The translations under genes and the position numbers were made by a program. Positions 1,143 to 34,271 of a DNA stretch of 64,000 bases are shown here, one piece after another. Below the pieces are notes generated by a model, which was not told where the DNA came from, did no database searches, and saw only the letters and a list, made by a program, of their open reading frames with translations. The stretch lies in IMG/VR virus record IMGVR_UViG_3300032294_001558, one strand, 5' to 3'. Numbering within the stretch: position 1 is the first letter of the stretch; the number at the start of each line of letters is the position of its first letter. The DNA comes from a virus.

Positions 1143-1526
1143 ATGGCAAATCGCTTTGCTAATGGCGCTAAAGCGTTTGGGTTTTGCGACGTTTGTGGGT
1201 TCCGTTTCAACCTGAAGAAGCTGAAGAACCTTACCGTCAAGACAAAGCAGACACAGATTCGCGCGTGCCCGCAGTGCTGGGTGCCCGATCAGCCGCAACT
1301 GCAACTCGGCATGTATCCCGTCGCGGATCCTCAAGCGATTCGCGACCCGCGCCCTGATACGAACACATGGGTTGCTTCCGGTACGGGCGTTTCCGGGTTC
1401 CCTGGCGAAGGCAGTCGTGTTACTCAGTGGGGCTGGGCTCCCGTAGGCGGCCCCAACGCAGTTCTGGGCTCCGTCGTCCCCAACGCCTTGCTTGGACAAG
1501 GTGTTCTTGGTACAGTGACCTTCTAG
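1143..1526 (+). CDS. small Cys4 zinc-ribbon protein (127 aa)
   Basis: Contains CDVCG...CPQCW (CxxC-N~35-CxxC). Lies in the operon. Confidence 0.55.
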   Translation: MANRFANGAKAFGFCDVCGFRFNLKKLKNLTVKTKQTQIRACPQCWVPDQPQLQLGMYPVADPQAIRDPRPDTNTWVASGTGVSGFPGEGSRVTQWGWAPVGGPNAVLGSVVPNALLGQGVLGTVTF

Positions 1527-1535
1527 GAGATTTTT

Positions 1536-1688
1536 ATGGCTACAACCCCTGAAAAAGCTGTCCGTAAGCACGAGAAGCGGATGCACCCCGGCAAGACCCC
1601 TTCGTTTAAGAAGGGCGGGCCTACGACCGACGATTACAAGCGCCTCGGCCGTAACATGGCGCGTGCCATGAACCAGAAAGGCCGCTGA
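1536..1688 (+). CDS. tiny basic protein (50 aa), below the ORF-track cutoff
   Basis: Read by hand: GGAG-N7-ATG at 1536, MATTPEKAVRKHEKRMHPGKTPSFKKGGPTTDDYKRLGRNMARAMNQKGR, TGA at 1686-1688. It fills the gap between neighbouring genes exactly. Confidence 0.45.
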   Translation: MATTPEKAVRKHEKRMHPGKTPSFKKGGPTTDDYKRLGRNMARAMNQKGR

Positions 1689-19136: not shown

Positions 19137-19361
19137 TCATACAACGCGCCAGACTCGGATGCCAAGCATCCCGGACTCGATTCTTTCGACGTAAGTCATC
19201 CCGTATTTCTTTTTAGAGTAGTACCGGGAAACTGCGGTGAAAGCTTTTTTTGGTGTCAAAGTAGGCAAGAAAAAACTATCGTTTACCGCCATATTATCCG
19301 GCACTCGATAGTTAACACCGCTTATTTTAAGCGGCTTTTGTACTACTGGCGGCTGTAGCAT
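19137..19361 (-). CDS. small conserved phage protein (..DSFF..GIRVWR family), paralog of 35925..36173
   Basis: Shares ..NMAVNDSFFLP.. and a C-terminal GIRVWR with the 82-aa ORF at 35925. Last gene of the - strand operon. Confidence 0.5.
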   Translation of the reverse strand: MLQPPVVQKPLKISGVNYRVPDNMAVNDSFFLPTLTPKKAFTAVSRYYSKKKYGMTYVERIESGMLGIRVWRVV

Positions 19362-22155
19362 CGTCTGTTAGCCCGAGCACTTGGGCGGCATCTTTAATGC
19401 AGTACGCACTGACTGGACCAAAGTCGGTGTCCCACCCTGCCCCCATACGCTTCTTGATTAGCTCAACTTCGCGTCCGGTCTCTTCATTAAAGAGAACGCG
19501 AATCTCTTTGGCGTTGATGTAGTTATCTGCGCACCAACGCGTAAAGTCTTTTTGGACAATAAACAGGGTCTTAGTGTCTGGCTCGTACCGCACCACCAAC
19601 CTACCCTTAGGCTTCATATACGGCTCGTTCTGCAACCCGTTGCTGCGCTGTTTAGAGTCGATAGTCAGCATGTTGTTGATGTTGTTGTTGATGAACGCAG
19701 CAAAAGTCTCGACAGCCCTAGTAGACTGTGACTGCATATCTGCGCCAGACTTTTTGACGACTGTAAGAATCTGCGCGGCGATTCTCGATATGTTGAAAGA
19801 GGTCAGTCCCAAAGTGTTAGTTATCACGCCCGCCGCCAGCGCGCAAACCACTTGGTTCAGCTTATACCGCTCTGTCTGAGTCCACGTGTGCTCCAGATAG
19901 ACCCAATCGCGAGTCTGCTCCCATACTCGCTGTACATACTCAATGTTCGAGACTACAAACGATATGAACAACGGCCCTGCGTGTCCGTAGTTGTCCTCAA
20001 GCTGGTTAAATACTTTCTGCGCGCCGAGAACATCATCAGGAACGGGTGTCCGGAGATGGATCTCAATAACACGGGCCATCTCCCCTTGCGGATCGAACTT
20101 GATTATTCCGAGCCTGTCTTCAATACTTGTGTTGCTTGACCAGATGCTGTTGCCCTTCCAAGTAATGTCGTTATGCCGCTCAGCGTTCTCCCCAGCCTTC
20201 ATACGGTCCCGCGCTCGACCTTGCGTACTGCCGTAGAGAAGCACCGACATCTCCTCTGGCTTTGTATTGGTCATCTCATCGAGGGTCATAGCAATACCGT
20301 TCAAAACCCCCATTCTATGGACCTTGGATAGATGGGTGTCTTGCGCGTCTTTCATCATCGCAGACGGGTTAGCGAAGATGGAGTTGATCATTTTTAGAAT
20401 AGTGGTTTTCCCGGTGCCACTTTTCTTAGAGAAGTAATTCAACACCCCGCCGTTCTCCGGCGAGAAATGCATCAACATACTGCCAAACCCAGTGAGCAGT
20501 CCGTAGGCGTGCAGATCACACTCAGGGCGGTTGTACATATCCACGACCCGCTTCCAGCCCTCCAGCGTGCCTTTCGGCCTGAACCAGTCTAGATATCTAT
20601 CAAGTGAGCGCGCTGCTGGAGTGTATTTAATACCCTTGTCTGTATACTCCCTATCACCAGCGATGAATGTGTTGTGCTTTGTCCAACCAAACCTCGCGTG
20701 TACGGCGTCTGCCTTGGTAGAAAGCTGCAAATCCTGAATAGAACGGGCAAAATAGTGTTGTAGCTGCTGTAGTTGCTTTTGGTTGTAAGTGGTGACGCCT
20801 TGCTCGTTCAGCTTGTCCCGAAGTTTTTCAGGAGCAGCGAATTCTTTCTGACTCATCATGAAGTCACGGACACCGTCGTTTGGCAAGTGGTGCCTCAACC
20901 ACAGCACGTCCCCTAGCTCTGAGTCGCGCATCCGCTTATAGATGTACAGGTCATGTGGGTACACCAGTTCGTATTCTTCTGGTGTGTCACCGTCATCGTC
21001 CCCCGACTTTTCCTTGTGCTTGACCATATACACGCCCCCATGCTTACCGCGAAGGTACGGCCACGGGTACGCGGGGATGTCGTAACGCCTCCCCCCTGCT
21101 TCAACAAAAGGCTTTTCTTCTACTCTCTGTAGGGCGATGGTGGCGCCAAGCTGGATAGGTGATGTGATCTTCCCTCCATGCGGGCAGCCAACGCAAAGCT
21201 CGGGACGGTCTAGAGACTGGAACGTCTCGCAGGTATAGGGGCCCTTCGTGAGGGCAGCTTTCCTCTCTGTCTCTTCGGGGCTGTAGTCAGGATGCCCCTT
21301 AGACACTTCGTGGATCGCCCAATCGCGGTCGTCGCACTGTTCGGCGATAGACAGCACCCCGCGCCAGCAAGGCTCCGTGACATTCTCTGGATGCTTGATG
21401 GCTTCAGCAATCTGCGCGCAGCCTTGGCCTTTGGTGGACTTGATCCAGATGGTTTCAAATTTACTAATCCGGTTATCCCACCCAGCCAGTGTCTTAGTGA
21501 TATTACTTAGCTTAGGTCTGCTTACCGTAGCGACAGGGGTAGGCGGTACTGCTACGTTGTTAAGGATACCGGCTAGTTTATCAAAGCTGTAGTGAACAAC
21601 ATCTGTCAGTAGAACTACTTGTGCGCCATTTTTTTGGTTGATCGTATCAGGGATACGTAGCACACGAACGACGTCCGCAGTACAGCCACCGTCTACGCTG
21701 AATCTTTCTGCTTTGCACAGCGCTTTCAGTCGCTCGGCTGCTTCAGTCCATTGGTGGACCGGCACCGCATCAGTAAATATCCAATGGGCGTGGTATCCAT
21801 TACCAGAATCGACGATTGTTGGTTTCGGTAGTTTTACCTTTTTGCAGAACTCTTTTAGAGCCTGCATTGCTTCTGTTTTGTTGCTGTACGGCTTACGGTC
21901 GCCGCAATCAACGTCTATATACAGTTCTCTCTTAGCTACAGCGTTTATAGCTTCGGCAGTTGTACCAGACCCAAACCCCGCTGTTGCGTAGTATACGTCA
22001 ACATCTTTTGGTAGTCCTTGCTTGATGTTTTCAACCATCTCTGAAGGACTGTTAAAGAATCGATTGAACGCGGTCTTGGTCTTCCTGTTTACGAATCTAA
22101 GAGAGTACCGTGCCCTTTCTGGGAGAATGCCTTGTAGGAAATCCAATTGGGACAT
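19327..22155 (-). CDS. bifunctional primase-polymerase / SF3 (D5/VirE-like) helicase
   Basis: N-terminal prim-pol motifs (ELYIDVDCGD, VDSGNGYHAHWIF). Walker A KKSGTGKTT. 942 aa. Confidence 0.8.
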   Translation of the reverse strand: MSQLDFLQGILPERARYSLRFVNRKTKTAFNRFFNSPSEMVENIKQGLPKDVDVYYATAGFGSGTTAEAINAVAKRELYIDVDCGDRKPYSNKTEAMQALKEFCKKVKLPKPTIVDSGNGYHAHWIFTDAVPVHQWTEAAERLKALCKAERFSVDGGCTADVVRVLRIPDTINQKNGAQVVLLTDVVHYSFDKLAGILNNVAVPPTPVATVSRPKLSNITKTLAGWDNRISKFETIWIKSTKGQGCAQIAEAIKHPENVTEPCWRGVLSIAEQCDDRDWAIHEVSKGHPDYSPEETERKAALTKGPYTCETFQSLDRPELCVGCPHGGKITSPIQLGATIALQRVEEKPFVEAGGRRYDIPAYPWPYLRGKHGGVYMVKHKEKSGDDDGDTPEEYELVYPHDLYIYKRMRDSELGDVLWLRHHLPNDGVRDFMMSQKEFAAPEKLRDKLNEQGVTTYNQKQLQQLQHYFARSIQDLQLSTKADAVHARFGWTKHNTFIAGDREYTDKGIKYTPAARSLDRYLDWFRPKGTLEGWKRVVDMYNRPECDLHAYGLLTGFGSMLMHFSPENGGVLNYFSKKSGTGKTTILKMINSIFANPSAMMKDAQDTHLSKVHRMGVLNGIAMTLDEMTNTKPEEMSVLLYGSTQGRARDRMKAGENAERHNDITWKGNSIWSSNTSIEDRLGIIKFDPQGEMARVIEIHLRTPVPDDVLGAQKVFNQLEDNYGHAGPLFISFVVSNIEYVQRVWEQTRDWVYLEHTWTQTERYKLNQVVCALAAGVITNTLGLTSFNISRIAAQILTVVKKSGADMQSQSTRAVETFAAFINNNINNMLTIDSKQRSNGLQNEPYMKPKGRLVVRYEPDTKTLFIVQKDFTRWCADNYINAKEIRVLFNEETGREVELIKKRMGAGWDTDFGPVSAYCIKDAAQVLGLTDDATAASSTKAA

Positions 22156-23823: not shown

Positions 23824-26295
23824 TTAGGCGTCAAGTACCTCCTTGTACAGGTTCAGAAGCGAATCGAGGCTGGCGGTCTTGGACTCCAGCGCTTCATACT
23901 GCTTACGCTCGACCGGGGAGCCGCAGAGCTTGACCACCAAGCAGGGGTTTTTCTGGCCCGCCCGGTGGACGCGAGCATTGGCTTGGTGCCAGATTTCGTT
24001 AGAGGTCACAGGCCCCCACCACACGACAGTGTTGGCCGCGTGCAACGTCACACCATGCGAAGCAGCGGCGGGCTGAATCAACAGAATGCGTGGATCAGGT
24101 CCAGTCTGAAACGCCTTAAATATTTCTGTACGTTTATGAGCAGCTACACCACCATGAACTACTTCTACTGTGTATCCGTCTTTTTTCAGTTGGTTCTCTA
24201 GATGGTCTATTGCGTGCCGGAAAGGGACGAAGACAAGAACTTTGTGTGTGCTTTCTTCTATCGCTTCTAGTAAAACATTATACCGATGTGTCATGTCGAA
24301 CACTACGGTATTACCGTCGTCGGTATAGACCGCCCCACAGTTATGTACAATTAGCGGGGTGCCTGTAGCCCCCCGGACTACAAACCTACTGCGCGGCCCA
24401 CAGTTTACAAGGTCGTAGACTCGCTCCGTACCAGCGTAGTGAGCGCTTTCTCTAGCGGCCAGTTGTACCGAAACAGTCGCGCATGTAGCGTCGCTTTCTT
24501 TATACCGTAGACTTCCGCCGCCTGTGTTACCGTCAAACGGCCCTTTGGTGTATCCACCCACTGGTTGAACCGCGTATTGTTGGCTTGCTCCGTAGCCGTA
24601 GCCCATCGACAGTTCTCTGGACTGTACGGGCCATTCACGTTTATCCGATCTAACGCCAAACCATCGGCGTACCCTTCCTGCATGTCGGCCCAGAAATTCG
24701 CAAACGACTCTTCCCAATGTTTGCAAACAGTTATCCCCCGTGCTCCGTAATTTTGGTAGTCTTTGTCTTTTGGGTCTAAACATCTCCGCCGCATACCGGA
24801 CCATACGCGGTACGGGCGAGATTGCGTCATTCTGTGCGTTTCGTTCCCGTGATGGCAACCACAACTCCTTGGGTGCACCCTCTTCGTATTGCGAAGATAT
24901 TGGCTCTGCCTCTCCACAACCGCCCCGCAATCGCATTGACACACCCACTTCGCGCACTGACTTCCGCGCACCGTTGACTCGGCTCGCGCTAATACCACCA
25001 GGAAGCCGAACCTCTGCCCAGTCAAGTCCAGCGCCCGTCGCACGGGGTTTGAGTATGTCATCTGCCGTCGCCCATCCGTCATTTGTAAGCACCTTATGAT
25101 CTGCGGTCATACGAACCCCAGCAACGGTAACCAAGGGCTTTACACCCCGGAAGATCGCTCCTTGCTGGGCCACCCACTCCACGCCATCCCAAACGCGATG
25201 TTGTGGAGTAACGAGTTGGATTGGTAACCAACCTACGTCGGTTAATACGTCTGTGTTATACGATATACATGCTACCTGTAAAAGCTTGTTAAGATTAGTA
25301 GCCGCATTGACCGACGTTACGGTTTCTCCAGCGGCAGTCATTATAAACTGCTCTTTGAGGAGCTTGTAGTACTTAGACTGCTGCGGTGTGAGCGGGGCTT
25401 CGCGCGTGGTATACAGCAATTCCGGCAGGTCTAAGCATTCATCTTTCGTAAATCTGATCGCTGGCTGTAGTATTTTGTTAATCGTTTCGGCTGCATCAGT
25501 CTTAGGTTTCCACCTAAACTGTGTGAGTTTATACATCACTCTATCGCGGAATGTATAGAAATTTGATGGTATTGATCCCGGGTCCATCATTTTAGCTAGG
25601 CCATAAGCGTCAGTAGGACTTTGCGAGGCAGGGGTGCCAGTCAACATCCACAGCCACGTATTCGGCTGAATTAATGAGTTGATCGCTCTCCATCTTTTGG
25701 TGGTGGCGGTTTTTACTGCGTTGGCTTCGTCGATTATTACCAAATCGAAACCGCTATCTTTCAGGTCTGGTAGGACTGTTTCGACGCCATCAAAATTTAT
25801 GATGACAAACTCAGCATCGGATTGTATGACTTTAGTACGTTTCTCTCTGCTACCGTGAGCAATATCTACCCTGCGGTGCATGACCGTTTTGAACAGGTCA
25901 GCGCGCCACGCCGAGTTCATGATCGACAGTGGGCAGATCACCAAAACGCGTCTGACATGCCCCGTACGCAACAAGTAGTCCGCTGCCCACGCTACGCTTG
26001 CGGTCTTGGCGGTGCCCGGGTCGTTGAAACAATACGCTCTACGATGGAGTGTGAGAAACGAAGCTGTAGTCCGCTGGTGCGCAAATGGCGTATATATCCC
26101 CGGCCAGTTGTAGTGCTTTTCTATTGGCGATGGTACTTTCTTGACGCCTAGATTCTTTAGTACTTGGGACTCGTCTAGGCCCCAATAGACCAACACTGTG
26201 CCATCGGCTAGTTGTTTGGAACGGGGGATCGTTGCGAGCACCCGCTCGGGGTGCCGCAACTTAAGAAGCAAAGCTTTGTTCTCTACTATCTGCAT
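23824..26295 (-). CDS. SNF2/DEAD-like helicase precursor containing an intein
   Basis: Motif I DPGTAKT, motif II VIIDEAN, motif VI QANARVHRAGQ. Interrupted between ..LLQVA and CGAVYTDDG by a Hint-type element. Confidence 0.85.
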   Translation of the reverse strand: MQIVENKALLLKLRHPERVLATIPRSKQLADGTVLVYWGLDESQVLKNLGVKKVPSPIEKHYNWPGIYTPFAHQRTTASFLTLHRRAYCFNDPGTAKTASVAWAADYLLRTGHVRRVLVICPLSIMNSAWRADLFKTVMHRRVDIAHGSREKRTKVIQSDAEFVIINFDGVETVLPDLKDSGFDLVIIDEANAVKTATTKRWRAINSLIQPNTWLWMLTGTPASQSPTDAYGLAKMMDPGSIPSNFYTFRDRVMYKLTQFRWKPKTDAAETINKILQPAIRFTKDECLDLPELLYTTREAPLTPQQSKYYKLLKEQFIMTAAGETVTSVNAATNLNKLLQVACISYNTDVLTDVGWLPIQLVTPQHRVWDGVEWVAQQGAIFRGVKPLVTVAGVRMTADHKVLTNDGWATADDILKPRATGAGLDWAEVRLPGGISASRVNGARKSVREVGVSMRLRGGCGEAEPISSQYEEGAPKELWLPSRERNAQNDAISPVPRMVRYAAEMFRPKRQRLPKLRSTGDNCLQTLGRVVCEFLGRHAGRVRRWFGVRSDKREWPVQSRELSMGYGYGASQQYAVQPVGGYTKGPFDGNTGGGSLRYKESDATCATVSVQLAARESAHYAGTERVYDLVNCGPRSRFVVRGATGTPLIVHNCGAVYTDDGNTVVFDMTHRYNVLLEAIEESTHKVLVFVPFRHAIDHLENQLKKDGYTVEVVHGGVAAHKRTEIFKAFQTGPDPRILLIQPAAASHGVTLHAANTVVWWGPVTSNEIWHQANARVHRAGQKNPCLVVKLCGSPVERKQYEALESKTASLDSLLNLYKEVLDA
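24340..25269 (-). mobile_element. intein (310 aa, Hint splicing blocks, no in-frame endonuclease motif)
   Basis: Cys1 codon at 25267-25269 (CISYNTDVLTDVGW). Block-B-like RMTADHKVLT. C-terminus VYDLV..PLIVHN, with the Asn codon at 24340-24342, followed by Cys+1. Confidence 0.8.
24405..25082 (-). CDS. HNH_3-like homing endonuclease encoded in the +1 frame inside the helicase intein
   Basis: 225 codons. Motifs GQRFGFLVVL, WVCQCDCG, YQNYGARGITVCKHW, LDRINVNGPYSPENCRWATATEQANN. Frame offset from the intein start is 187 nt (mod 3 = 1). Confidence 0.65.
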   Translation of the reverse strand: MTDGRRQMTYSNPVRRALDLTGQRFGFLVVLARAESTVRGSQCAKWVCQCDCGAVVERQSQYLRNTKRVHPRSCGCHHGNETHRMTQSRPYRVWSGMRRRCLDPKDKDYQNYGARGITVCKHWEESFANFWADMQEGYADGLALDRINVNGPYSPENCRWATATEQANNTRFNQWVDTPKGRLTVTQAAEVYGIKKATLHARLFRYNWPLEKALTTLVRSESTTL

Positions 26296-26837
26296 TAACG
26301 CAACTCAAACTTACAAGCTGCCGCGCGTTCGATAAGGTCAAGGGCCTGGGTCGTAGCGTCATCAAGAGCGTTGTGCGGTACCCCTACGTTCTGCTTCTTC
26401 TCCTTCGTACCAAACATAGCCCGGATAGTTCGGTAGCAGCGGTCGTTCCAAAAATGCCAAGGGGTATCCATTTTCATGAGACGGTAGGCAGCGGCGAGCA
26501 GCGCATTATCAAAGTTTGCACCGTTGCCCCAAACCACTGCTACGTCTTGTGGAGGCATCCACATAGAGAACTTAATGAGTGCGAGGTCGATTTTAAGCGT
26601 ACCAGAAAATGCAGCAGTTCTGGCTTCTTCTGACTGTTTAGACCACCACTCCAAAGTACTTTTTTGCGCGCGGAATCCGGCTTCTTTACAGGACTCTGAG
26701 TCAATCGCAACATAGAATTTTTCGGCAATTCCTTTTTCGGCGCTGAACTTAACTGCGCCGATAGATAGGATCGTATCCCCCGGCCTTGTGCCCAGGGTCT
26801 CAAGATCAATCATTACATGCTTAAGATCGTTGTCCAT
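26295..26837 (-). CDS. DnaQ-like 3'-5' exonuclease
   Basis: MIDLETLG (DxE) and PHNALDDA motifs. TAATG coupling with the helicase. Confidence 0.75.
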   Translation of the reverse strand: MDNDLKHVMIDLETLGTRPGDTILSIGAVKFSAEKGIAEKFYVAIDSESCKEAGFRAQKSTLEWWSKQSEEARTAAFSGTLKIDLALIKFSMWMPPQDVAVVWGNGANFDNALLAAAYRLMKMDTPWHFWNDRCYRTIRAMFGTKEKKQNVGVPHNALDDATTQALDLIERAAACKFELR

Positions 26838-26858
26838 TTCTTCTCCTAAATACCAAGA

Positions 26859-26907
26859 TGGTTCGATGAGGGGATCTCATCGAACCGTAGACCCCAATCT
26901 TGTTGGG
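26859..26907 (-). terminator. two strong intergenic hairpins (terminator or RNA-processing site)
   Basis: GGTTCGATGA (26859-26868) pairs with TCATCGAACC (26876-26885). CCCCAA (26891-26896) pairs with TTGGGG (26902-26907). There is no clear U-run. Confidence 0.3.
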
Positions 26908-26930
26908 GATTAAACCCGCTCTAAGCGGTG

Positions 26931-27197
26931 TCAGGCCCCGCTTCGCGGGCTCTTGTAGTTTTTTGCGCTGTTGGCGCTAAAAGACTTAAGCCGGACGTTC
27001 CCTGGCTTGCTTTTCCCACCATCTTTGATGGGCTTGATGTGGTCTAGGGCTTTCCCTTCCCGGGAAGCTCGCCCGTGCTCTTTATCCCAAGCACGTCTAG
27101 CCCGCTGTCTTTCCGACTGCTTAGCCCGCCCACCATTTGCGAGGAAGTCTCTGTACTCTTTTTGGTGGTTTCTATCAGACTTGTTTTTGTAAGGCAT
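26931..27197 (-). CDS. small stand-alone HNH nuclease (88 aa)
   Basis: LDHIKPIKDGGKSKPGNV (DH..P..GG..N). Very basic N-terminus. Confidence 0.5.
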   Translation of the reverse strand: MPYKNKSDRNHQKEYRDFLANGGRAKQSERQRARRAWDKEHGRASREGKALDHIKPIKDGGKSKPGNVRLKSFSANSAKNYKSPRSGA

Positions 27198-27234
27198 TCG
27201 TTATCTCCAAAATCCAATTCCAACTGGACCCAGT

Positions 27235-27906
27235 TCATGTATTAGCTCCATTATGGGGACAGGTAGTAACGACGCAATGGCGACGGCAAAGCCCCGACGG
27301 ATTAGGGTTCCATACGTTTGTGCGGATTGCGGTTTCCAGTCGTTGGATATCTTGCATCCATTGCCGCCAGTAGACTTTTTCACGTTCTACTGTGTATTCA
27401 GCGGGCTTGAAGTGGTTCGCTACTACGAACAGCAGCCCGCCCTTGACCCTACGCACTGAGGGGAAGTGTTTGAAGACCAGCAAGGCCATCAACTCCAACT
27501 GTGCTGTATCTGCGTATTTGGCAGAGCGGCTCGTCTTGTAGTCCACGACCCGGGCAGAGCCTTTGTCCTCGTTGACGATCAGGAGGTCCACGACCCCCCG
27601 GCACCATACATCAGGCGCGTCAAACGCGCAAGGGTGCAGATCCTTGGTCAGGCCCATCTTGTGCTCGCACAGCTTAGTCCCGGGGATGTTTCGCAGGGCA
27701 TCGAGGTGGGGCTTGACGTAGCCGAAGGCCCCAGGCAGGGGGGTGCCGTCTCGCACGTAAGACTCGGCTGCTTCGTGGAAATTCGTGCCGTATAGCGTAG
27801 CCTCTGTGAACGGTGGCTCCACAAAGTTGCGGAAGACTTTTACCTCTGCATACTGTCTCGGACAAGTCTTAAATTTTTTTAGGCTACTAAACGACCACGC
27901 TTTCAT
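27235..27906 (-). CDS. PD-(D/E)XK nuclease, Cas4/RecB-like with a Cys cluster
   Basis: VVDLLIV...ARVVDYKTS core. N-terminal CPRQY plus C-terminal CRRHCVVTTCPHNG cysteines. Confidence 0.65.
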   Translation of the reverse strand: MKAWSFSSLKKFKTCPRQYAEVKVFRNFVEPPFTEATLYGTNFHEAAESYVRDGTPLPGAFGYVKPHLDALRNIPGTKLCEHKMGLTKDLHPCAFDAPDVWCRGVVDLLIVNEDKGSARVVDYKTSRSAKYADTAQLELMALLVFKHFPSVRRVKGGLLFVVANHFKPAEYTVEREKVYWRQWMQDIQRLETAIRTNVWNPNPSGLCRRHCVVTTCPHNGANT

Positions 27907-28088
27907 CGCCTATTTTCTTCCATTATTGAAAGAGTATGCTGGAGCAGCCGCCCTTCGACACAAAGGCTCTCGGCCTTCAACCGCGCTTTTTCATATTCGT
28001 GGCTCAGACAAAGATGGTGAATCTCTTTCGCAAGCTTTTCGATCTGTATTAGCGGCATTGCGTAGTCAACAATCTCGTCATTCTTCAT
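27903..28088 (-). CDS. hypothetical protein (61 aa)
   Basis: ATGA overlap with the downstream gene. Lies in the operon. Confidence 0.45.
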   Translation of the reverse strand: MKNDEIVDYAMPLIQIEKLAKEIHHLCLSHEYEKARLKAESLCVEGRLLQHTLSIMEENRR

Positions 28089-30855
28089 CAGCCATTTCCC
28101 CGTAATTATAGCCCCATTTGGACTCGCAGTTGATCGGCAGCCCCGCTGCCCAGGGAGGCACCCAACGCATGCAGGACTCGATGTAAGCCCGCGCCTCGCC
28201 TAGCTCGGCCTCGCGCACTACGGCCAGAATACTATCATGGACGGTCAAGGCCACACGGTACTTCTTTGCAATGCGCAGCAACTGCGACATCACAATAATA
28301 CGGGCGAGTGCCTGAGTACAGTTCTCAACCAATTTCCCGCCGTATATATCTACTAGTCCTGTGTCGTCTTTATACTGCCACCGCATTACTTGTCGGTTCG
28401 GGTCCTGTGTCCGGTGCAGTTGCGGGTAGCTGACGTACAGCCCGCTGGGCAGGCGCACGCCTTTCTTTCCCTCGATGAGCAGCACACCCTCGCGCCCGAG
28501 CCACCGGGTCTTGTTGGCGTGCATGGACTCGATGCACTGCTCGGCCTCGTACCACAGATTTTTGATACGGTCATTAGTCATGCGATAAATGTCAATGATC
28601 CGCTGGCACTCTTGAATATCAAGATCCATTGGCGGGTTTGCGGTCTTTAGCGTAGCCTGTAGTTTGAAGGCCCCGGTTTGGTAACCGCAATTATGTACGA
28701 TCAGCGCCCCCGCTGCTGTCAACACAGTGAATCTGTTGTTCGGTCCTGCTAAGGCGATGTCGTAGGTCTGCATTTTCTGTTTTAAGACGCTCGATCTCCT
28801 GTTGTAGGACTGACACCCTGCGTCTATTGTTGGCGTTCTCGCCTCTAGTACACCACCGAAGATTCCCAGGTTCGTAGCCTTTATCGTTGTCGATCCGGTC
28901 AAGTTCAAGTAGAGGGTTGTCCCAGCCCGGCAGAGAAATGATGTATCGCAGAAACGCCCTGCGGTCTTTAGTCCACGCCGGATAAACTCGTATACCTCTC
29001 CCGCCGTAATTTTCGTACTGTCTACAAGTCGGTATTTCGCATCGGTTAATGCAGGAAGATATTCTATTAAGGAGGCGTTCTCTTGTTGCGTCATCTGGAA
29101 CGGTGTCGGCATACCCCCAATAGTGTTTGCGTGTTTTAGCAGACGCTTTCCTTGCGCAATCCCCGCATCTAGCAGTTTTTTTATTGATGAAGTTACTACG
29201 GTGAACAAGACCTTCCCATCCGCAAGTACACTTGACGCGCGGGTTCCAGCCTTCACTGTATCCGTTTTTCCGTAATTGTTGTTCCCAGCCAATGACGGTA
29301 AGGTCGCCCTGTTGAGTGCCGATTGGAGCAGGGAAGGGTTTGAATGGACCTCGGACCACGCCCGCCATCCATGTCCCGTCAGGATTTCGTGGTCCGCCGT
29401 GGCGTGCAACATCAAATCCGTTTGTGTTTCTGTTATTCGGTACCCCTGATTCAACAATCCGCTGTGGCTCACCCATGATTCCCCATCCCATAGTTTGTCA
29501 GATAGCTGGACCCGTACGATAGTCTTCCAGCCTGAGTCTGTCAAGACTTGGGTATCAGGTCCGAAGCACCCGAGGACCACTGTTTTTCCTAGGAACCTTT
29601 CGTTCTTGTTAGCCTTCGTAATTGGACGGCCGTAGATACGACTCGCCATTTTGCAATACACATCGACTCCGTTGGCGAAATCCTCAACAAGATCGTTCTG
29701 CCTCGCCAGCCACGCCAATACCCGAGCTTCGATGTTGGACGAATCAGAATCAATCAGAACGTGCCCAGGCGGGGCTTCAATACATGCTTTGAGTTCTGTA
29801 CCCCCTCGTGCAGGTAGGTTTTGAAGATTAATATTATCGCCGCCGCTCGTTCTTTTTGTTCTTGCGTAGCTATACTTGAGAGGGACTGGTAGTACTGGGT
29901 TACGCTTAGCGATGTCGATAAACGTACTTGTGCGGGTCTCCTCCAGCGTGCTTTTGGTCCCCAGGCGCGCAGCTACGGCGGTCTGCACTCGCTCATCAGG
30001 ATGGTCCAGCAGGGCTTTAAGTCCGGGGTCGGTCTTAGCGAATGCGAACGCCGGTTTCCCCGTCGTCTTGCTGATCTTCATGGGCGGCTCGACACCCAGT
30101 TCCTTCAGTACCTCGGCAAACTGCGGGTTCGACGATAGCCGCTCCTTACTGAACTCTGTCTTACTTAGAAGCTCTTCCTTGCGCTTGATCACCCCTGCGA
30201 GGTGCGCTTCCAGCTTCTCCTTGTTCAGCCGCAGCACAGGCTCCGAGAACATCCTGATATGCCGGTCGATGAGCCGCAACTCCTCCAGGGGGTAGTTGTC
30301 CCGCTTGTCGAACTCCTCGATGTTGTACCAGCCCTCGGACATCGTGTGCCACATGTCGTAGCAAAGCTTAACGTCATGCAGGCAGTAGGCTGCGTATCGG
30401 CTGAACCCCTCGGAGGTGAAGTCTTCTCTACGCTTGCCCATCGCGTTTTGCACCTCGGTGCCCTTATCCTCGAAGCCGTACCGCTTGGCAAGCATGGCGA
30501 GAGAGTTGTTCCGGGACCCAAACATGGCACGGGCCATAGACAGGGTGTCTAGCCACGCGCGGGGATTAACGTCAAAGAGCCACGAGAAGATGGCTGAGTC
30601 GAACATCGTGTTGTGGCACAGCACGGCGTACTTACCCCAGTCTACCGCGTCCAGTCTATATTTGATGTCCGCGTGGGTGCCAGTGACCACTTCTGTAGTG
30701 CCATCGGGCCACCGAAGCCCGAGCATTATAACTTCAAATCGTGGGTCACGTACATACGCCTCAGTAGTTAGTTTTGTGAGGCTGTATTCTTTGTCGTAGT
30801 ACGTTTCAAAGTCCGCGGTGATTATTTCCATATGTCTCTCTAAACCACTGCTCAA
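28078..30855 (-). CDS. family A DNA polymerase precursor containing an intein in motif B
   Basis: 3'-5' exonuclease motif ITADFETY. Motif A LIDSDSSNIEARVLAW. Motif B split as RFLGKTVVLG / CGYQTGAFKL. Motif C LTVHDS. Confidence 0.9.
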   Translation of the reverse strand: MSSGLERHMEIITADFETYYDKEYSLTKLTTEAYVRDPRFEVIMLGLRWPDGTTEVVTGTHADIKYRLDAVDWGKYAVLCHNTMFDSAIFSWLFDVNPRAWLDTLSMARAMFGSRNNSLAMLAKRYGFEDKGTEVQNAMGKRREDFTSEGFSRYAAYCLHDVKLCYDMWHTMSEGWYNIEEFDKRDNYPLEELRLIDRHIRMFSEPVLRLNKEKLEAHLAGVIKRKEELLSKTEFSKERLSSNPQFAEVLKELGVEPPMKISKTTGKPAFAFAKTDPGLKALLDHPDERVQTAVAARLGTKSTLEETRTSTFIDIAKRNPVLPVPLKYSYARTKRTSGGDNINLQNLPARGGTELKACIEAPPGHVLIDSDSSNIEARVLAWLARQNDLVEDFANGVDVYCKMASRIYGRPITKANKNERFLGKTVVLGCFGPDTQVLTDSGWKTIVRVQLSDKLWDGESWVSHSGLLNQGYRITETQTDLMLHATADHEILTGHGWRAWSEVHSNPSLLQSALNRATLPSLAGNNNYGKTDTVKAGTRASSVLADGKVLFTVVTSSIKKLLDAGIAQGKRLLKHANTIGGMPTPFQMTQQENASLIEYLPALTDAKYRLVDSTKITAGEVYEFIRRGLKTAGRFCDTSFLCRAGTTLYLNLTGSTTIKATNLGIFGGVLEARTPTIDAGCQSYNRRSSVLKQKMQTYDIALAGPNNRFTVLTAAGALIVHNCGYQTGAFKLQATLKTANPPMDLDIQECQRIIDIYRMTNDRIKNLWYEAEQCIESMHANKTRWLGREGVLLIEGKKGVRLPSGLYVSYPQLHRTQDPNRQVMRWQYKDDTGLVDIYGGKLVENCTQALARIIVMSQLLRIAKKYRVALTVHDSILAVVREAELGEARAYIESCMRWVPPWAAGLPINCESKWGYNYGEMADEE
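28690..29568 (-). mobile_element. intein (293 aa), paralog of the helicase intein
   Basis: Cys1 codon at 29566-29568 (CFGPDTQVLTDSGW). Block B ATADHEILT. C-terminus YDIALAGPNNRFTVL..ALIVHN, with the Asn codon at 28690-28692, then Cys+1. Confidence 0.85.
28691..29491 (-). CDS. HNH_3-like homing endonuclease encoded in the +2 frame inside the polymerase intein
   Basis: 266 codons. Motifs GDLTVIGWE, YENYGGRGIRVYPAW, LELDRIDNDKGYEPGNLRWCTRGENANN. Its TAA (28691-28693) overlaps the intein His-Asn codons. A shorter start at Met42 is possible. Confidence 0.65.
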   Translation of the reverse strand: MGWGIMGEPQRIVESGVPNNRNTNGFDVARHGGPRNPDGTWMAGVVRGPFKPFPAPIGTQQGDLTVIGWEQQLRKNGYSEGWNPRVKCTCGWEGLVHRSNFINKKTARCGDCARKASAKTRKHYWGYADTVPDDATRERLLNRISSCINRCEIPTCRQYENYGGRGIRVYPAWTKDRRAFLRYIISLPGWDNPLLELDRIDNDKGYEPGNLRWCTRGENANNRRRVSVLQQEIERLKTENADLRHRLSRTEQQIHCVDSSGGADRT

Positions 30856-31118: not shown

Positions 31119-31373
31119 TTATTCTGCTTGTTTCAAAGCAAGCGTATAACTCAACCAAAACGGCCAAGCAAGCGCTTTGATTCCTCCGGCTAGAGCCGGC
31201 GGGGATGGAGTTTGGCAGATACGTCTCGTGCTGATGTCATTGGGGAAATCGACCGCACACTTTGCACTGACCAAAGCATGCGCGCGTTCCGATTCTACGG
31301 TGGCGGGGCCAAAACAAATGACCACCCCTGCTAAATACGCCGCCCCAAAACAAAGTGGAATAGATATCTTCAT
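31119..31373 (-). CDS. small membrane/secreted protein (84 aa)
   Basis: ATG at 31373 preceded by GAGGGAG. N-terminal hydrophobic MKISIPLCFGAAYLAGVVICFG. The ORF track's longer form starts at 31517. Confidence 0.45.
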   Translation of the reverse strand: MKISIPLCFGAAYLAGVVICFGPATVESERAHALVSAKCAVDFPNDISTRRICQTPSPPALAGGIKALAWPFWLSYTLALKQAE

Positions 31374-31458
31374 TTTTTCGCTCCCTCTATGAGAAAAATG
31401 GCTACAAGCAGCCCCCGTATCAACAGTGCGTCGTGCATACAAAACCTCTAGATTTTGT

Positions 31459-31767
31459 CTAAAACACGTTAGGCCCCAAGTCCAGCACCACCGTGCGCGG
31501 CTGCATCGCCACGCCATCGGCCACTGCCTTCAGCAGCGCCATGTAGCGCGCGTCCACCTCGCGCAGTTGAGCCGTCAAGCCGTCCACGCGACTCGCCCAG
31601 CAGTGCGCCTCGTCGGCGCGGGCCGAGCGCACCGCATCGCGCAGTTCTTCAATCCGCGCCTCCACCGCCAGCAGCGTGCTGCTCTTGAGCGGCACCATGC
31701 CCGTGTTGGGCGCCAGTCGCGCCGTTGCTAGCGCGCTGCGCCAGTCGCTCAGTTCATGTTCTCGCAT
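31459..31767 (-). CDS. hypothetical protein (102 aa)
   Basis: Co-oriented ORF in a GC-rich block. Confidence 0.45.
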   Translation of the reverse strand: MREHELSDWRSALATARLAPNTGMVPLKSSTLLAVEARIEELRDAVRSARADEAHCWASRVDGLTAQLREVDARYMALLKAVADGVAMQPRTVVLDLGPNVF

Positions 31768-31803
31768 CTTCTCGCTCCGGTTGGTTGGGGCCTAACACTT
31801 CGC

Positions 31804-32280
31804 TCAAGCCGACGCCTGACGGCGCGGCTTACCTCGGGCGTTGGGCGGCTCGCTGTCGTCGTAGCGCCCTAATGCTTCGGCGGCCAGTTCTCGGCACGCT
31901 TCGCGGTCGCGGTTCCAAGTACCGTCCGGCCGCATCGGGGCCGCAATCAACTCCAGCGCCTCGCGCATTTCCATCGCGCGCAGGCTCGGCCGTCGCGCGA
32001 AGCCGGCATCGGCCAGTTTTTGGCTTCGCGTGCGCGCGTCCAGCGTGTACTCGCGCACCACCCATAGGCCCGCCGAGTGAATCTCATGCTCCACTATGGC
32101 GTCGCTGATATGGTCGTTGCACGCTTGCGGGTACGCTGCGCAGAACACCGGAAGGCCCATCTCGTCCAACACAACAAACACGGTGCTCGGTAGGTCATCG
32201 CGCTTCGGCACCAGCCGCCCAACCCCTCGCTCAACCGGAGAGCCGCCGGCTACGGTGTTTGCATCTTCAGGCGTCGTCAT
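31804..32280 (-). CDS. hypothetical protein (158 aa)
   Basis: Co-oriented ORF. Confidence 0.5.
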   Translation of the reverse strand: MTTPEDANTVAGGSPVERGVGRLVPKRDDLPSTVFVVLDEMGLPVFCAAYPQACNDHISDAIVEHEIHSAGLWVVREYTLDARTRSQKLADAGFARRPSLRAMEMREALELIAAPMRPDGTWNRDREACRELAAEALGRYDDSEPPNARGKPRRQASA

Positions 32281-32306
32281 GCGGCGTCTCCCGGTTAGCT
32301 CGAACG

Positions 32307-32552
32307 TTAGGCATCAAGCCCGCTGCGCTTCAGCAGGTCGAGGTATTCGTCTGCAAGTTGCTCGTAGTCGTGCCGCGCGTCTCCCAAGCGGTCCCAGGTG
32401 TTCGCGTACTTGTAGCCGCCCGCATAGGTGTCGCGCACCCATTCGTCGCTCATGCCCTCGGTGTCCTGCGGGTAGTCCGCACGCGCGCGCGCTATCCAGG
32501 CCGCGTCCGTCAGCTTCGGAAACCAGTAGGGTCGGTCGTTGCTTGTTGCCAT
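32307..32552 (-). CDS. hypothetical protein (81 aa)
   Basis: ATG at 32552 preceded by AGGAGAACTGATT. The ORF track's longer form starts at 32672. Confidence 0.5.
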   Translation of the reverse strand: MATSNDRPYWFPKLTDAAWIARARADYPQDTEGMSDEWVRDTYAGGYKYANTWDRLGDARHDYEQLADEYLDLLKRSGLDA

Positions 32553-32622
32553 AATCAGTTCTCCTAGTTGATGCCTAACTAACGGTTCAACCCGGACCGG
32601 CCTCCGGCCGGTTAACCTAGCG

Positions 32623-32865
32623 TTAGAACTCTTGCAAAATTTCGTTGGCGTTCCAAGCAATAGCAGCGGCAACCATCACGGCTGTCTCAAACCGCCGCAC
32701 CTGTTCCCGCACCCGGGTTGCGTGTTTCCCGCGCCTGCGATTGCTGGTTGAAATCACGCGCCAATCTTTGTCAAGCGAGCCTAGCCACGCAAGCGACCTA
32801 TTGCTGATTTTTACAACGCCAAAGTCCGTCACTATTACGTCCATGAGTTTTAACCCTTCACTCAA
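32623..32865 (-). CDS. hypothetical protein (80 aa)
   Basis: Co-oriented ORF. Confidence 0.4.
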   Translation of the reverse strand: MSEGLKLMDVIVTDFGVVKISNRSLAWLGSLDKDWRVISTSNRRRGKHATRVREQVRRFETAVMVAAAIAWNANEILQEF

Positions 32866-32944
32866 CCGGACAAGCCCAGGCAGGCTATCTCGCTCCGGTC
32901 AAGCCAAGTCGTGGGGCTTTCCGGTTACTTCTACGTTCGGCCTC

Positions 32945-33241
32945 TTACTGCGCGCCACCGCAGGTCACGATGTACGGCGGCTCCCACGGCGGGCGCGGCA
33001 CCCATGTCGGTGCCGGCAGCGTCACGGGCACAAACACCGGCTGCACAGTCGGCATCGGCCCAATCCACTCCGGCCGCTGTTCGGCGCGGCGGCGTTGCTC
33101 TGCCAGCAGCGCCTTCAGGTGCGCCAGCAGCGGCTCGTAGCGCGGCTGCCCGGTGCCGCACTCGCGCACCTTTTTGTCCGCCACCTCTATCGCTTGCGCC
33201 AGTTCTTCGTTGGTCATCGTTCCCCCCACGTTAAGCATCAT
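32945..33241 (-). CDS. hypothetical protein (98 aa)
   Basis: ATGA overlap with the upstream gene. Confidence 0.45.
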   Translation of the reverse strand: MMLNVGGTMTNEELAQAIEVADKKVRECGTGQPRYEPLLAHLKALLAEQRRRAEQRPEWIGPMPTVQPVFVPVTLPAPTWVPRPPWEPPYIVTCGGAQ

Positions 33242-33531
33242 ACAAGCCCCGCCGCTTTAAGTTCTGCGCTTGACAGCAGTTTGTTCATGTACTCGCCGGG
33301 GATGCCTTCGACTTGCGCCGCCTGAATCTCGCCGCCCGGGTTGATGCCCAGCGCCCACGCCTTTTGGTACGCGTGTATGAAGCCCGGCGCTTCCACGATG
33401 CACACGCCCAGAAACTGCTGGCCCTTCGGCTTTTCAGGGTCGCAGAACGACATCCACCACAGCACGGGGGGGTTGTCCTGCTCTTCGGCCAGCAGAAGCT
33501 CCTTGAGTTCCTGCACTTGCGGTTCGTTCAT
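33238..33531 (-). CDS. hypothetical protein (97 aa)
   Basis: ATG at 33531 preceded by GAGGTGG. The 193-aa ORF-track entry probably fuses two genes. Confidence 0.45.
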   Translation of the reverse strand: MNEPQVQELKELLLAEEQDNPPVLWWMSFCDPEKPKGQQFLGVCIVEAPGFIHAYQKAWALGINPGGEIQAAQVEGIPGEYMNKLLSSAELKAAGLV

Positions 33532-33920
33532 CGTGCCACCTCTGCATGTTAGGCCGCCCAGGCTCTTACGTGTCACTTCGTACACCTCGTACCGCATCCC
33601 CGTGTCGTCGTTCGCGTACTGACCCAGGTAGTGGGCCGCTTCGCGCTCGGCCTCTTCGCGCGTTGAGGCGGTGCCGCCCGCGTGCCAATCGTCGTCTTTG
33701 CTGGGCTCGCGCCCAGCGCAATTGGGAAGACCCCCCAGAAGTCCGCGGACGGCCAGATGCTGAGAGCCAAGTATGCGGACGCTCCCACCCAGCCACCGTA
33801 GCACAGTCGTGCGAGACACGTTGATCTCGCACTCGACGCGGCGTCTGCACTCGTGGATTCAGTAGTCATCGGTTTTCCTCTTTAGGCCGCAAAAAATCCC
33901 GCCGCGCCTCCGCGTGCGGC

Positions 33921-34271
33921 TCAACTTCTACGTTGGGCATCACCAACAACCCAGTATTGGCGCGGCGCCGTCGCCTTGAATTGCATGCTGTCCACGCATT
34001 GCACCACGGAAGTACAGCCACCAGACTTTATGGTGAAGTGGGCGCAAAGGCGGCAGTCACGCGGCCACAAGTTCAGGGCTGCATTACGCGCCGCTTCAGC
34101 CTCGCGCATAGCGTAGGCAATCCACTCCGCCACGTCCGCGCTGTCTCCCAGCGTGGTCTCCCCAACCGCGCCCGCCTCATAGGCGGCAAAGGCCAAGCCA
34201 TCCAGCGCTTTGCGCACGGGGGATAACCCCTCGGTCAACCGGACCTTGGCCGGCGTTGCGTCGTCATTCAT
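33921..34271 (-). CDS. hypothetical protein (116 aa)
   Basis: Co-oriented ORF. Confidence 0.45.
   Translation of the reverse strand: MNDDATPAKVRLTEGLSPVRKALDGLAFAAYEAGAVGETTLGDSADVAEWIAYAMREAEAARNAALNLWPRDCRLCAHFTIKSGGCTSVVQCVDSMQFKATAPRQYWVVGDAQRRS

Follow-up and report, generated by a model that had tools for sequence, protein, structure and literature searches.

A stretch of 64,000 nucleotides (nt) from the IMG/VR virus record IMGVR_UViG_3300032294_001558, referred to here as the window, carries a minus-strand phage replication module in which two genes each contain an intein. Open reading frames (ORFs) together with Pfam and PHROG matches assign the module a D5/DUF927-type primase-helicase, an SNF2 helicase, an exonuclease, a PD-(D/E)XK protein and a family A polymerase. 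The helicase and the polymerase each exceed the length of their homologs by about 300 residues, and the intein of each gene holds a second ORF, encoding an HNH-like protein, in another frame of the same strand (HNH1 in the helicase, HNH2 in the polymerase). The helicase precursor has 823 amino acids (aa), which splicing would reduce to 513 aa, and the polymerase precursor has 925 aa as listed. The positions of these features are collected in Table 1.

Table 1. Features of the replication module in the window, with coordinates, strand and supporting matches.
Feature	Position in window	Strand	Length	Remarks
SNF2-family helicase gene, host of intein 1	23824-26295	minus		Pfam SNF2-rel_dom 2.7e-20, Helicase_C 1.2e-15
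Intein 1	24340-25269	minus	310 aa in host frame	inside SNF2 helicase
HNH1, nested HNH-like gene	24405-25082	minus	225 aa	frame +1 relative to helicase; PHROG 374 2e-61
Shine-Dalgarno-like AAGGTG	25090-25095	minus		7 nt upstream of HNH1 ATG; block B His-Lys-Val codons
Family A DNA polymerase gene, host of intein 2	28078-30855	minus		Pfam DNA_pol_A 2.9e-23
Intein 2	28690-29568	minus	293 aa in host frame	inside polymerase, between ...GKTVVLG and CGYQTG
HNH2, nested HNH-like ORF	28691-29491	minus	266 aa from first ATG	frame +2; PHROG 374 5e-29
D5/DUF927-type primase-helicase	19327-22155	minus

Read in the frame of its host gene, intein 1 has the ends and splicing blocks LLQVA|CISYNTDVLTD...TADHKVLT...VYDLVNCGPRSRFVV...PLIVHN|CGAVY, with Cys1 at 25267-25269, the TADH of block B at about 25096-25107 and the terminal His-Asn at 24340-24345, followed by Cys+1 (here and below, a vertical bar marks a splice junction or insertion point). 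Intein 2 reads VVLG|CFGPDTQVLTD...TADHEILT...TYDIALAGPNNRFTV...ALIVHN|CGYQTG. The two host-frame inteins align at E=6e-13; the similarity is confined to the first ~67 and the last ~26 residues, and the middle is dissimilar. Among 19 members of this Hint family the N-terminal residues characteristic of class-1 inteins (C1, T55 and H58) are invariant, as are H111 and N112 at the C-terminal end. Both window elements close with LIVHN|CG, and the +1 extein residue is C or S at all loci. A family profile built from the N- and C-parts retrieves inteins in 10 of 10 PDB matches, with the Neq Pol split intein as the best (3e-5) and PI-MtuI at 0.003. Pfam Hint models respond weakly to the family (Vint at 1e-3 in 3 of the 19 members, Hint_2 at 0.047), and neither Pfam nor NCBIfam recognises the Hint part of either window intein. 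Uninterrupted homologs align across both junctions, as LLQVA|CG.VYTDDGN in the helicase of the related locus L101 and as GKTVVLG|CGY in 19 of 20 IMG/VR polymerases that have the identical N-extein peptide and no intein at this LG|CGY site. The catalytic residues, the purifying selection on the Hint parts described below and the essential host genes point to both elements being class-1 inteins capable of protein splicing. No further Hint or HNH copies occur elsewhere in the window.

The ATG of HNH1 (25080-25082) is formed by Asn-Asp codons just past block B, 187 nt after the first base of Cys1, and the HNH1 stop lies within block F. The longest-ORF ATG of HNH2 lies 77 nt after the first base of its Cys1. 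A preliminary description of this DNA had derived frames +1 and +2 from these two offsets; the arithmetic is correct, with 77 nt denoting the start of the longest ORF and not an established start codon. Two alternative HNH2 starts, at 29476 (intein nt 92) and 29368 (intein nt 200, from the block B Trp codon), are also in frame +2, and the frame claim holds regardless of which is used. HNH2 ends in a TAA stop built from the last two intein codons, CAT-AAT (28690-28695). An intein end of the form CAT-AAY (His-Asn) gives TAA in frame +2 and provides the stop of HNH2 and of three relatives (L012, L018 and L019); with the His encoded as CAT, the +2 ORF cannot extend beyond the intein.

Inside the two window inteins the host frame contains no stops over 310 and 293 codons, the nested frame is stop-free across 233 and 268 codons, and the third frame is broken by 18 and 27 stops. 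Synonymous re-encoding of the HNH proteins with window codon usage (20,000 trials) left the host frame free of stops in about 5e-5 of trials per element, which puts the double openness far beyond chance. No host-frame stop occurs in any of 21 distinct loci, whose third frames have 1-22 stops, with per-locus resampling P from <0.0003 to 0.09, values that are not independent of one another because the loci share ancestry.

Selection was compared in two gap-free pairs, the window helicase intein versus its relative in L003 (81% nt identity) and the window polymerase intein versus its relative in L012 (74%). In the Hint parts the ratio of nonsynonymous to synonymous substitution rates (dN/dS) in the host frame ranges from 0.08 to 0.19 (0.08 in the N and C parts of intein 1, 0.19 in the N part of intein 2). 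In the middle stretch the ratio is 0.15 in the nuclease frame and 1.07 in the host frame for HNH1, and 0.13 and 1.19, respectively, for HNH2. Differences in this stretch fall at the third position of nuclease-frame codons in 73 of 122 cases (versus L003) and 103 of 189 cases (versus L012), and outside the nuclease gene, before its start and after about nt 800, they sit at the third codon position of the host frame. The wobble phase of intein 1 switches at about nt 190-240 and again at about nt 800-810, and that of intein 2 is back in the host frame at about nt 780-795, which places the switches overall at about nt 190-250 and 780-810. Upstream of the proposed starts the nuclease-frame dN/dS is 1.5-1.7, which shows no separate selection on this part of the frame. 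Purifying selection acts on the nuclease, which is thus a real gene, and in the host frame it acts on the Hint parts. The host-frame read-through of the nuclease gene is a linker whose sole visible constraint is the absence of stops, and both frames are held open by selection. The frame-specific switch in selection rules out a decayed or artefactual nuclease.

The layout is found in many other phages. Scans of IMG/VR with both nested proteins gave 89 loci; 17 of these have the nuclease ORF enclosed by a larger one (680-1278 aa) that runs on the same strand in a different frame, all with canonical intein boundaries, and the others are free-standing genes. In total, about 25 distinct contiguous loci, the two of the window included, have the layout. 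In these loci the host frame is stop-free, the nuclease frame open and the third frame interrupted by 1-22 stops, and the host frame remains without stops even where the nucleases are as little as 40% identical. In the databases HNH1 is most similar (58-66% identity) to proteins whose genes occupy the same helicase site on metagenomic contigs with the gene order of the window, and two further polymerase cases were found via HNH2 relatives. Close free-standing relatives adjoin helicase and replication genes, e.g. in Streptococcus phage Javan46. Among the best 120 matches of either nuclease there is no in-frame Hint-HNH fusion, all of them being 160-393 aa long.

Sequenced isolates carry the layout as well. 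It is present in Salmonella phage vB_SenS_S528 (Jerseyvirus), where the annotation consists solely of "intein-containing DNA polymerase precursor", and in EBPR siphovirus 2 gp51, Caulobacter phages GB2A, RW, RLK and KcrB, and Shewanella phage SFCi1. Polymerases are the host proteins in the Salmonella, Caulobacter and Shewanella phages. At least 80% of HNH2 is covered in 128 records of GenBank phages; the top match, EBPR siphovirus 2, has 76% coverage and lies outside these 128, to which the other listed rows among the best 40 all belong. Nearly all of the best 40 GenBank rows fall under a coding sequence annotated as polymerase or hypothetical protein, and the frame was read directly only for S528 and EBPR siphovirus 2 among the GenBank HNH2 records. 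The preliminary description had held that two copies with both frames open are hard to explain as assembly artefacts, and the occurrence of the layout in some 23 other loci, from separate metagenomes and sequenced isolates, excludes such an artefact. Annotation of these loci varies. At L095-L100 and L281-L283 the metagenome gene callers have called the nuclease and broken the helicase or polymerase into fragments, and in GenBank OK108608.1, OR260089.1 and KX196154.1 the host frame is annotated and the nuclease omitted. Several metagenomic contigs stop 20-670 nt from the nuclease ORF, as expected if a polymorphic mobile element breaks assemblies.

These inteins are distributed like homing genes: they occur sporadically, close relatives have the empty allele, and several insertion sites are in use. 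L101:1501-3039 is an intein-less helicase allele that is 97.5% identical in nucleotides to the spliced window gene, and its empty junction reads ...CTCTTACAGGTAGCT|TGCGGGTGCGTG...; the near-identical intein-less phage contig is IMGVR_UViG_3300008106_000012 of IMG/VR. Ten of the 38 differences between L101 and the window lie within 40 nt of the insertion point, including an Ala-to-Cys change at extein position +3. Target-site divergence or co-conversion would be expected to leave such a cluster. The scan gave 80 helicase relatives, and every one has an uninterrupted match of intein-less length (~1.5 kb for ~512 aa). Loci L269 and L275 (IMGVR_UViG_3300011336_000135 and 3300011337_000089) belong to a relative of the window phage with an 80% identical helicase; its polymerase has no intein at LG|CGY and instead a +1-frame intein with nuclease at VEN|CVQA. 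One polymerase gene thus offers two alternative homing sites, each taken by a different lineage.

Mini and split relatives of the elements also exist. L264 (about 1200-1594, minus strand) holds at LG|CGY of the polymerase a mini-intein of ~130 aa from the same Hint family, which contains no ORF in an alternate frame. In L282:984-3725, a Logan contig from SRR12158953, the +2 nuclease gene is present and the host frame has several stops. The order there is the N-part of the polymerase with an N-terminal intein piece that ends ~40 aa past block B, followed by the HNH gene and finally by a C-terminal intein piece of 35 aa that has its own GGAGA-ATG and is joined to the C-part of the polymerase. 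This arrangement matches the "fractured gene" organisation (Dassa et al., 2009; PMC2677866), whereas the host frames of the window are continuous and do not.

The preliminary description regarded the two window elements as paralogs, a single intein lineage having colonised two genes of this phage. Both parts are indeed homologous, the Hint domains at 6e-13 and HNH1 versus HNH2 at a BLASTP E of 1e-11 (35% identity over 110 aa). The single colonising lineage is not supported. The frame is fixed per lineage, and each frame pairs with its own Hint subgroup and its own nuclease subgroup. The Hint tree places 5 inteins in the +1 lineage (more were found later) and 14 in the +2 lineage. Sites of the +1 lineage are helicase LLQ(V/I)(A/S)|CGA, an unrelated host in L006 and the neighbouring polymerase sites VEN|C(T/V)QA and GKL|CEN; those of the +2 lineage are polymerase LG|CGY with nearby variants and a helicase-like host in L026. 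The window Hint domains are 40% identical to each other, among the most distant pairs in the family, and their same-site relatives in other phages are 86% (L003, helicase intein) and 78% (L012, polymerase intein) identical. Judged by these identities, the window inteins are homologs from two old lineages and not recent paralogs. The fixed frame per lineage, the same-site relatives elsewhere and the 40% Hint identity argue for two separate acquisitions, and the window phage most likely acquired two different elements by homing and not through the spread of one within its genome.

Dozens of free-standing phage HNH genes match HNH1 at 100-152 bits, compared with only 49 bits for HNH2, which itself reaches up to 82 bits against free-standing genes; each nuclease is closer to such phage genes than to the other. 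A neighbour-joining tree unites the +2 nucleases with 100% bootstrap and groups those of the +1 lineage weakly. The simplest reading would be that related mini-inteins captured free-standing HNH-like genes on two occasions and that each unit afterwards spread whole. Whether dual coding was re-established after indels or HNH genes entered mini-inteins independently had been left as a choice in the earlier account; independent entry fits better, given the bit scores, the tree and the mini-intein of L264, with the deep nodes being weak. The observation made in the preliminary description is thus confirmed, and its interpretation partly supported.

The signals for production of the nuclease differ between the two lineages. 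At 7 of 7 loci of the +1 lineage there is a conserved ATG with AGGAG, GAGGT or AAGG(T)G 5-9 nt upstream, and the nuclease frame opens only 0-12 codons ahead of this ATG; in L097 a stop codon immediately precedes it. In the +2 lineage conserved Trp codons supply NTG triplets as candidate starts, at intein nt ~92 and ~194-200, and the nuclease frame is already open far upstream of block B, beginning at intein nt 2-92. No promoter or terminator above background was found inside intein 1, and -1 slippery heptamers (X XXY YYZ) occur in 2 of 18 +2 loci and are not conserved. Given these two negative results, initiation inside the host mRNA is the best-supported route of expression suggested by the sequences.

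The nested proteins belong to a very large family with more than 7,700 members at E<=1e-10 in phage-like contexts. PHROG families 374, 3377 and 2081, labelled "HNH endonuclease", match at 2e-61 to 1e-20, and HNH2 also matches a PHROG "endonuclease VII" family weakly (2.5e-4). A PDB search with the single HNH1 sequence found nothing. With the family profile the best match in the PDB is I-HmuI (1U3E), an HNH homing endonuclease, at a marginal E of 0.047, over the beta-beta-alpha metal motif. The AlphaFold2 model of HNH1 has a mean predicted local distance difference test score (pLDDT) of 89 and shows at the motif two strands (143-146 and 158-161) and a helix (163-168), so that residues 143-168 form a strand-strand-helix unit of beta-beta-alpha topology. 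Around it are an N-terminal beta module that contains the CxC...CGC cysteines, a middle part made of helices and a C-terminal helical part resembling a helix-turn-helix, which has a weak Pfam match to HTH_psq and corresponds to model helices 185-215. The metal-ligand or structural motif positions D/E145, N157 and N169 are kept; N157 and N169 are invariant in 51 aligned sequences, and N169 aligns with the helix Asn of I-HmuI. Searches of BFVD give fold matches down to 1e-21 to phage proteins whose names are HNH, AP2 or homing endonuclease. The nested protein is therefore best described as HNH-like, and nuclease activity is likely on prediction.

We consider it very probable that each element is a class-1 intein whose endonuclease slot holds a complete HNH-like gene of free-standing type in another frame of the same strand. 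Ribosomes on the helicase or polymerase mRNA would read through the nuclease gene in the host frame and produce an unconstrained, stop-free linker of ~200 aa, after which the Hint N-part (blocks A and B) and C-part (blocks F and G) would fold together and splice the host protein. This step is shown in part: intact splice residues, selection limited to the Hint parts and stop-free linkers are observed, and splicing itself is inferred from them. Other ribosomes would start internally just after block B and make an HNH-like protein of 215-250 aa, in the +1 lineage from a start signal inside Hint codons (AGGTG or AGGAG, then ATG) and in the +2 lineage from start codons supplied by conserved Trp codons. 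The distribution of the elements suggests that, when relatives co-infect, this protein cuts or nicks the insertion site in their intein-less alleles, whereupon repair would copy intein and nuclease gene as a single unit. The two lineages would have originated when a free-standing HNH gene entered a mini-intein, at least twice.

Several points weigh against this explanation. Splicing, expression of the nuclease and cleavage are all deduced from sequence, the true start codon of HNH2 is uncertain, and the shared ancestry noted above reduces the independence of the resampling results. Free-standing genes fall between the +1 and +2 nested groups in the neighbour-joining tree, where deep nodes have less than 50% bootstrap, and a single ancient capture with a later frame change may be the alternative to two captures. 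The nested ORFs have no Pfam or NCBIfam HNH match, Pfam holding no model for the family, and a Foldseek search of the PDB with the whole HNH1 model gives nothing significant, the best being the PacI HNH at E=0.9. At the end of the first strand, where the general-base His is expected, HNH1 has R146 in the motif LDRI(D/N); this Arg aligns with the catalytic His75 of I-HmuI and is invariant in all 51 aligned family members. An invariant Arg at the His position means either unusual chemistry or a protein that is not a nuclease. Together with the missing Pfam and fold matches and the helix-turn-helix-like C-terminal region, it would suit an HNH-derived DNA-binding protein (site binder, regulator or nuclease recruiter) in an intein that is moved otherwise. 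We regard this as unlikely, since the metal-ligand or structural positions and the predicted beta-beta-alpha topology are retained, purifying selection on the gene is strong (dN/dS 0.13-0.15), the family exceeds 7,700 members in phage-like contexts, and the elements are distributed as mobile ones are, sporadically, at several sites and with a near-identical empty allele whose changes cluster at the site.

The remaining alternatives concern how the two frames are read. The nuclease could be made as a fusion to the N-extein and half-intein by programmed frameshifting (+1 in the helicase, -1 in the polymerase), and the +2 nuclease frame, open from intein nt 2-92, could indeed be reached by a -1 shift from the host frame. 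Against this stand the scarce and unconserved heptamers (2 of 18), the +1 nuclease frame that is closed until 0-12 codons before a conserved ATG preceded by a Shine-Dalgarno-like motif, the stop that abuts this ATG in L097, and the lack of selection on the nuclease frame upstream of the starts (dN/dS 1.5-1.7); programmed frameshifting is rejected for want of conserved slippery sites and in view of the stops just upstream of the +1 starts, and we hold it to be very improbable. We give slightly less credence still to the notion that the host frame is not read through and that split genes are joined by trans-splicing, the open frame being incidental or a recent relic. The split relative L282 and a Met before block F in the window polymerase (KMQTYD) fit this notion, but no Shine-Dalgarno sequence precedes that Met, most loci, the helicase element included, have no such Met, and all 25 contiguous loci are without host-frame stops at nuclease identities down to 40%, with a resampling P of ~5e-5 in the window. 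Sequencing or assembly frameshifts that split an ordinary in-frame HNH intein are a general possibility in metagenomic data and nothing beyond that speaks for them. The same frames recur in ~25 loci from different samples and in finished genomes (Salmonella S528, Caulobacter GB2A, Shewanella SFCi1 and EBPR siphovirus 2), a second compensating error at the C-terminal junction would be needed every time, and the host-frame linker evolves neutrally without acquiring stops, which leaves this account a negligible chance.

Out-of-frame endonucleases in inteins are already known. Actinophage inteins with an endonuclease VII-like gene that is read out of frame, in "frame 3", have been described, in a layout considered previously unreported, and were attributed to invasion of the intein by a free-standing nuclease gene with ongoing horizontal transfer (Gosselin et al., 2025 preprint; 10.1101/2025.01.02.630785). 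The window elements resemble that type in having a contiguous intein, a nuclease on the same strand in another frame and an open host frame that yields a region without recognisable structure. They differ in that the nuclease comes from an HNH-type family resembling I-HmuI, with a Cys-rich module at the N terminus, in having two lineages with frames +1 and +2 instead of frame 3 only, and in ORFs that overlap splicing blocks B and F/G, whereas the ORF of the actinophage inteins lies outside the blocks. The phages also differ, as they are not actinophages and include those of Salmonella, Caulobacter and Shewanella, and the elements here interrupt family A polymerase and SNF2 helicase genes.

Fractured genes with split inteins and a free-standing-type nuclease have been reported in phage DNA-metabolism genes and explained by a mini-intein invasion model (Dassa et al., 2009; PMC2677866). 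As in that organisation, the nuclease ORF overlaps the downstream intein part; in contrast, the window host genes are unbroken and their frame runs through the nuclease, and the nucleases of the fractured genes are GIY-YIG and Vsr-like. The ShiLan insertion hides an out-of-frame HNH in a phage methylase gene, with its mode of translation an open question (Arsenault et al., 2025; PMC11855218). Both cases have an out-of-frame HNH inside an open host ORF that starts a few codons into the insertion and stops in its last bases. The ShiLan insertion has no splicing domain and is thought to be retained in the host protein, whereas canonical intein blocks flank the nuclease here. The position of the nuclease between blocks B and F and the presumed cycle of splicing and homing are shared with canonical inteins (LAGLIDADG or in-frame HNH), in which the nuclease is part of the intein polypeptide and not, as predicted here, a separate translation product. 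Compared to I-HmuI, the beta-beta-alpha metal motif is alike, and the invariant Arg in place of the catalytic His and the N-terminal module are different. No literature on the present nuclease family or on a hidden gene in the Jerseyvirus polymerase intein was found in a search that did not cover all journals. What is new is the nuclease family, the two frames, the overlap with splicing blocks, the spread beyond actinophages and the mini and split relatives.

The selection switch and the more than 20 divergent loci provide strong sequence-level evidence that inteins can carry a homing nuclease as a separately translated overlapping gene. This fits the model of intein origin in which the splicing element came first and the nuclease was captured later. 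With mini, overlapped and split states in one lineage, the route to naturally split inteins becomes testable. The overlapped layout may even be a stable selected architecture, in which Hint codons double as the ribosome-binding site, the start and sometimes the stop of the nuclease, lineages shift among mini, contiguous double-coded and split forms, and the nuclease is perhaps a non-canonical HNH enzyme using Arg for the catalytic His; we put the chance of this at a little short of even. If true, it would provide a natural series of intermediates toward endonuclease-bearing and split inteins. The linker tolerates ~200 arbitrary residues, which is relevant to intein engineering. There is a consequence for annotation as well, in that depositors miss the nuclease, as in the Jerseyvirus polymerase precursor, and metagenome callers break the host gene.

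Some minor observations concern the window as a whole. DNA searches with both inteins and a 12-kb stretch against GenBank phages gave as sole match a 51-nt motif in mycobacteriophage HNH genes, and the window phage is without a close sequenced relative. No tRNA genes lie within the window. The polymerase ORF as listed opens with TTG (LSSGLERHMEIITADF..., window 30830-30855). An ATG eight codons downstream (MEIITADF...) is the likely start, as homologs begin near MEIITADFETYY. Immediately beyond the replication module, at about 31250-34000, the guanine-plus-cytosine content rises from ~0.51 to 0.61-0.69, which could mark a module boundary or a prophage edge.

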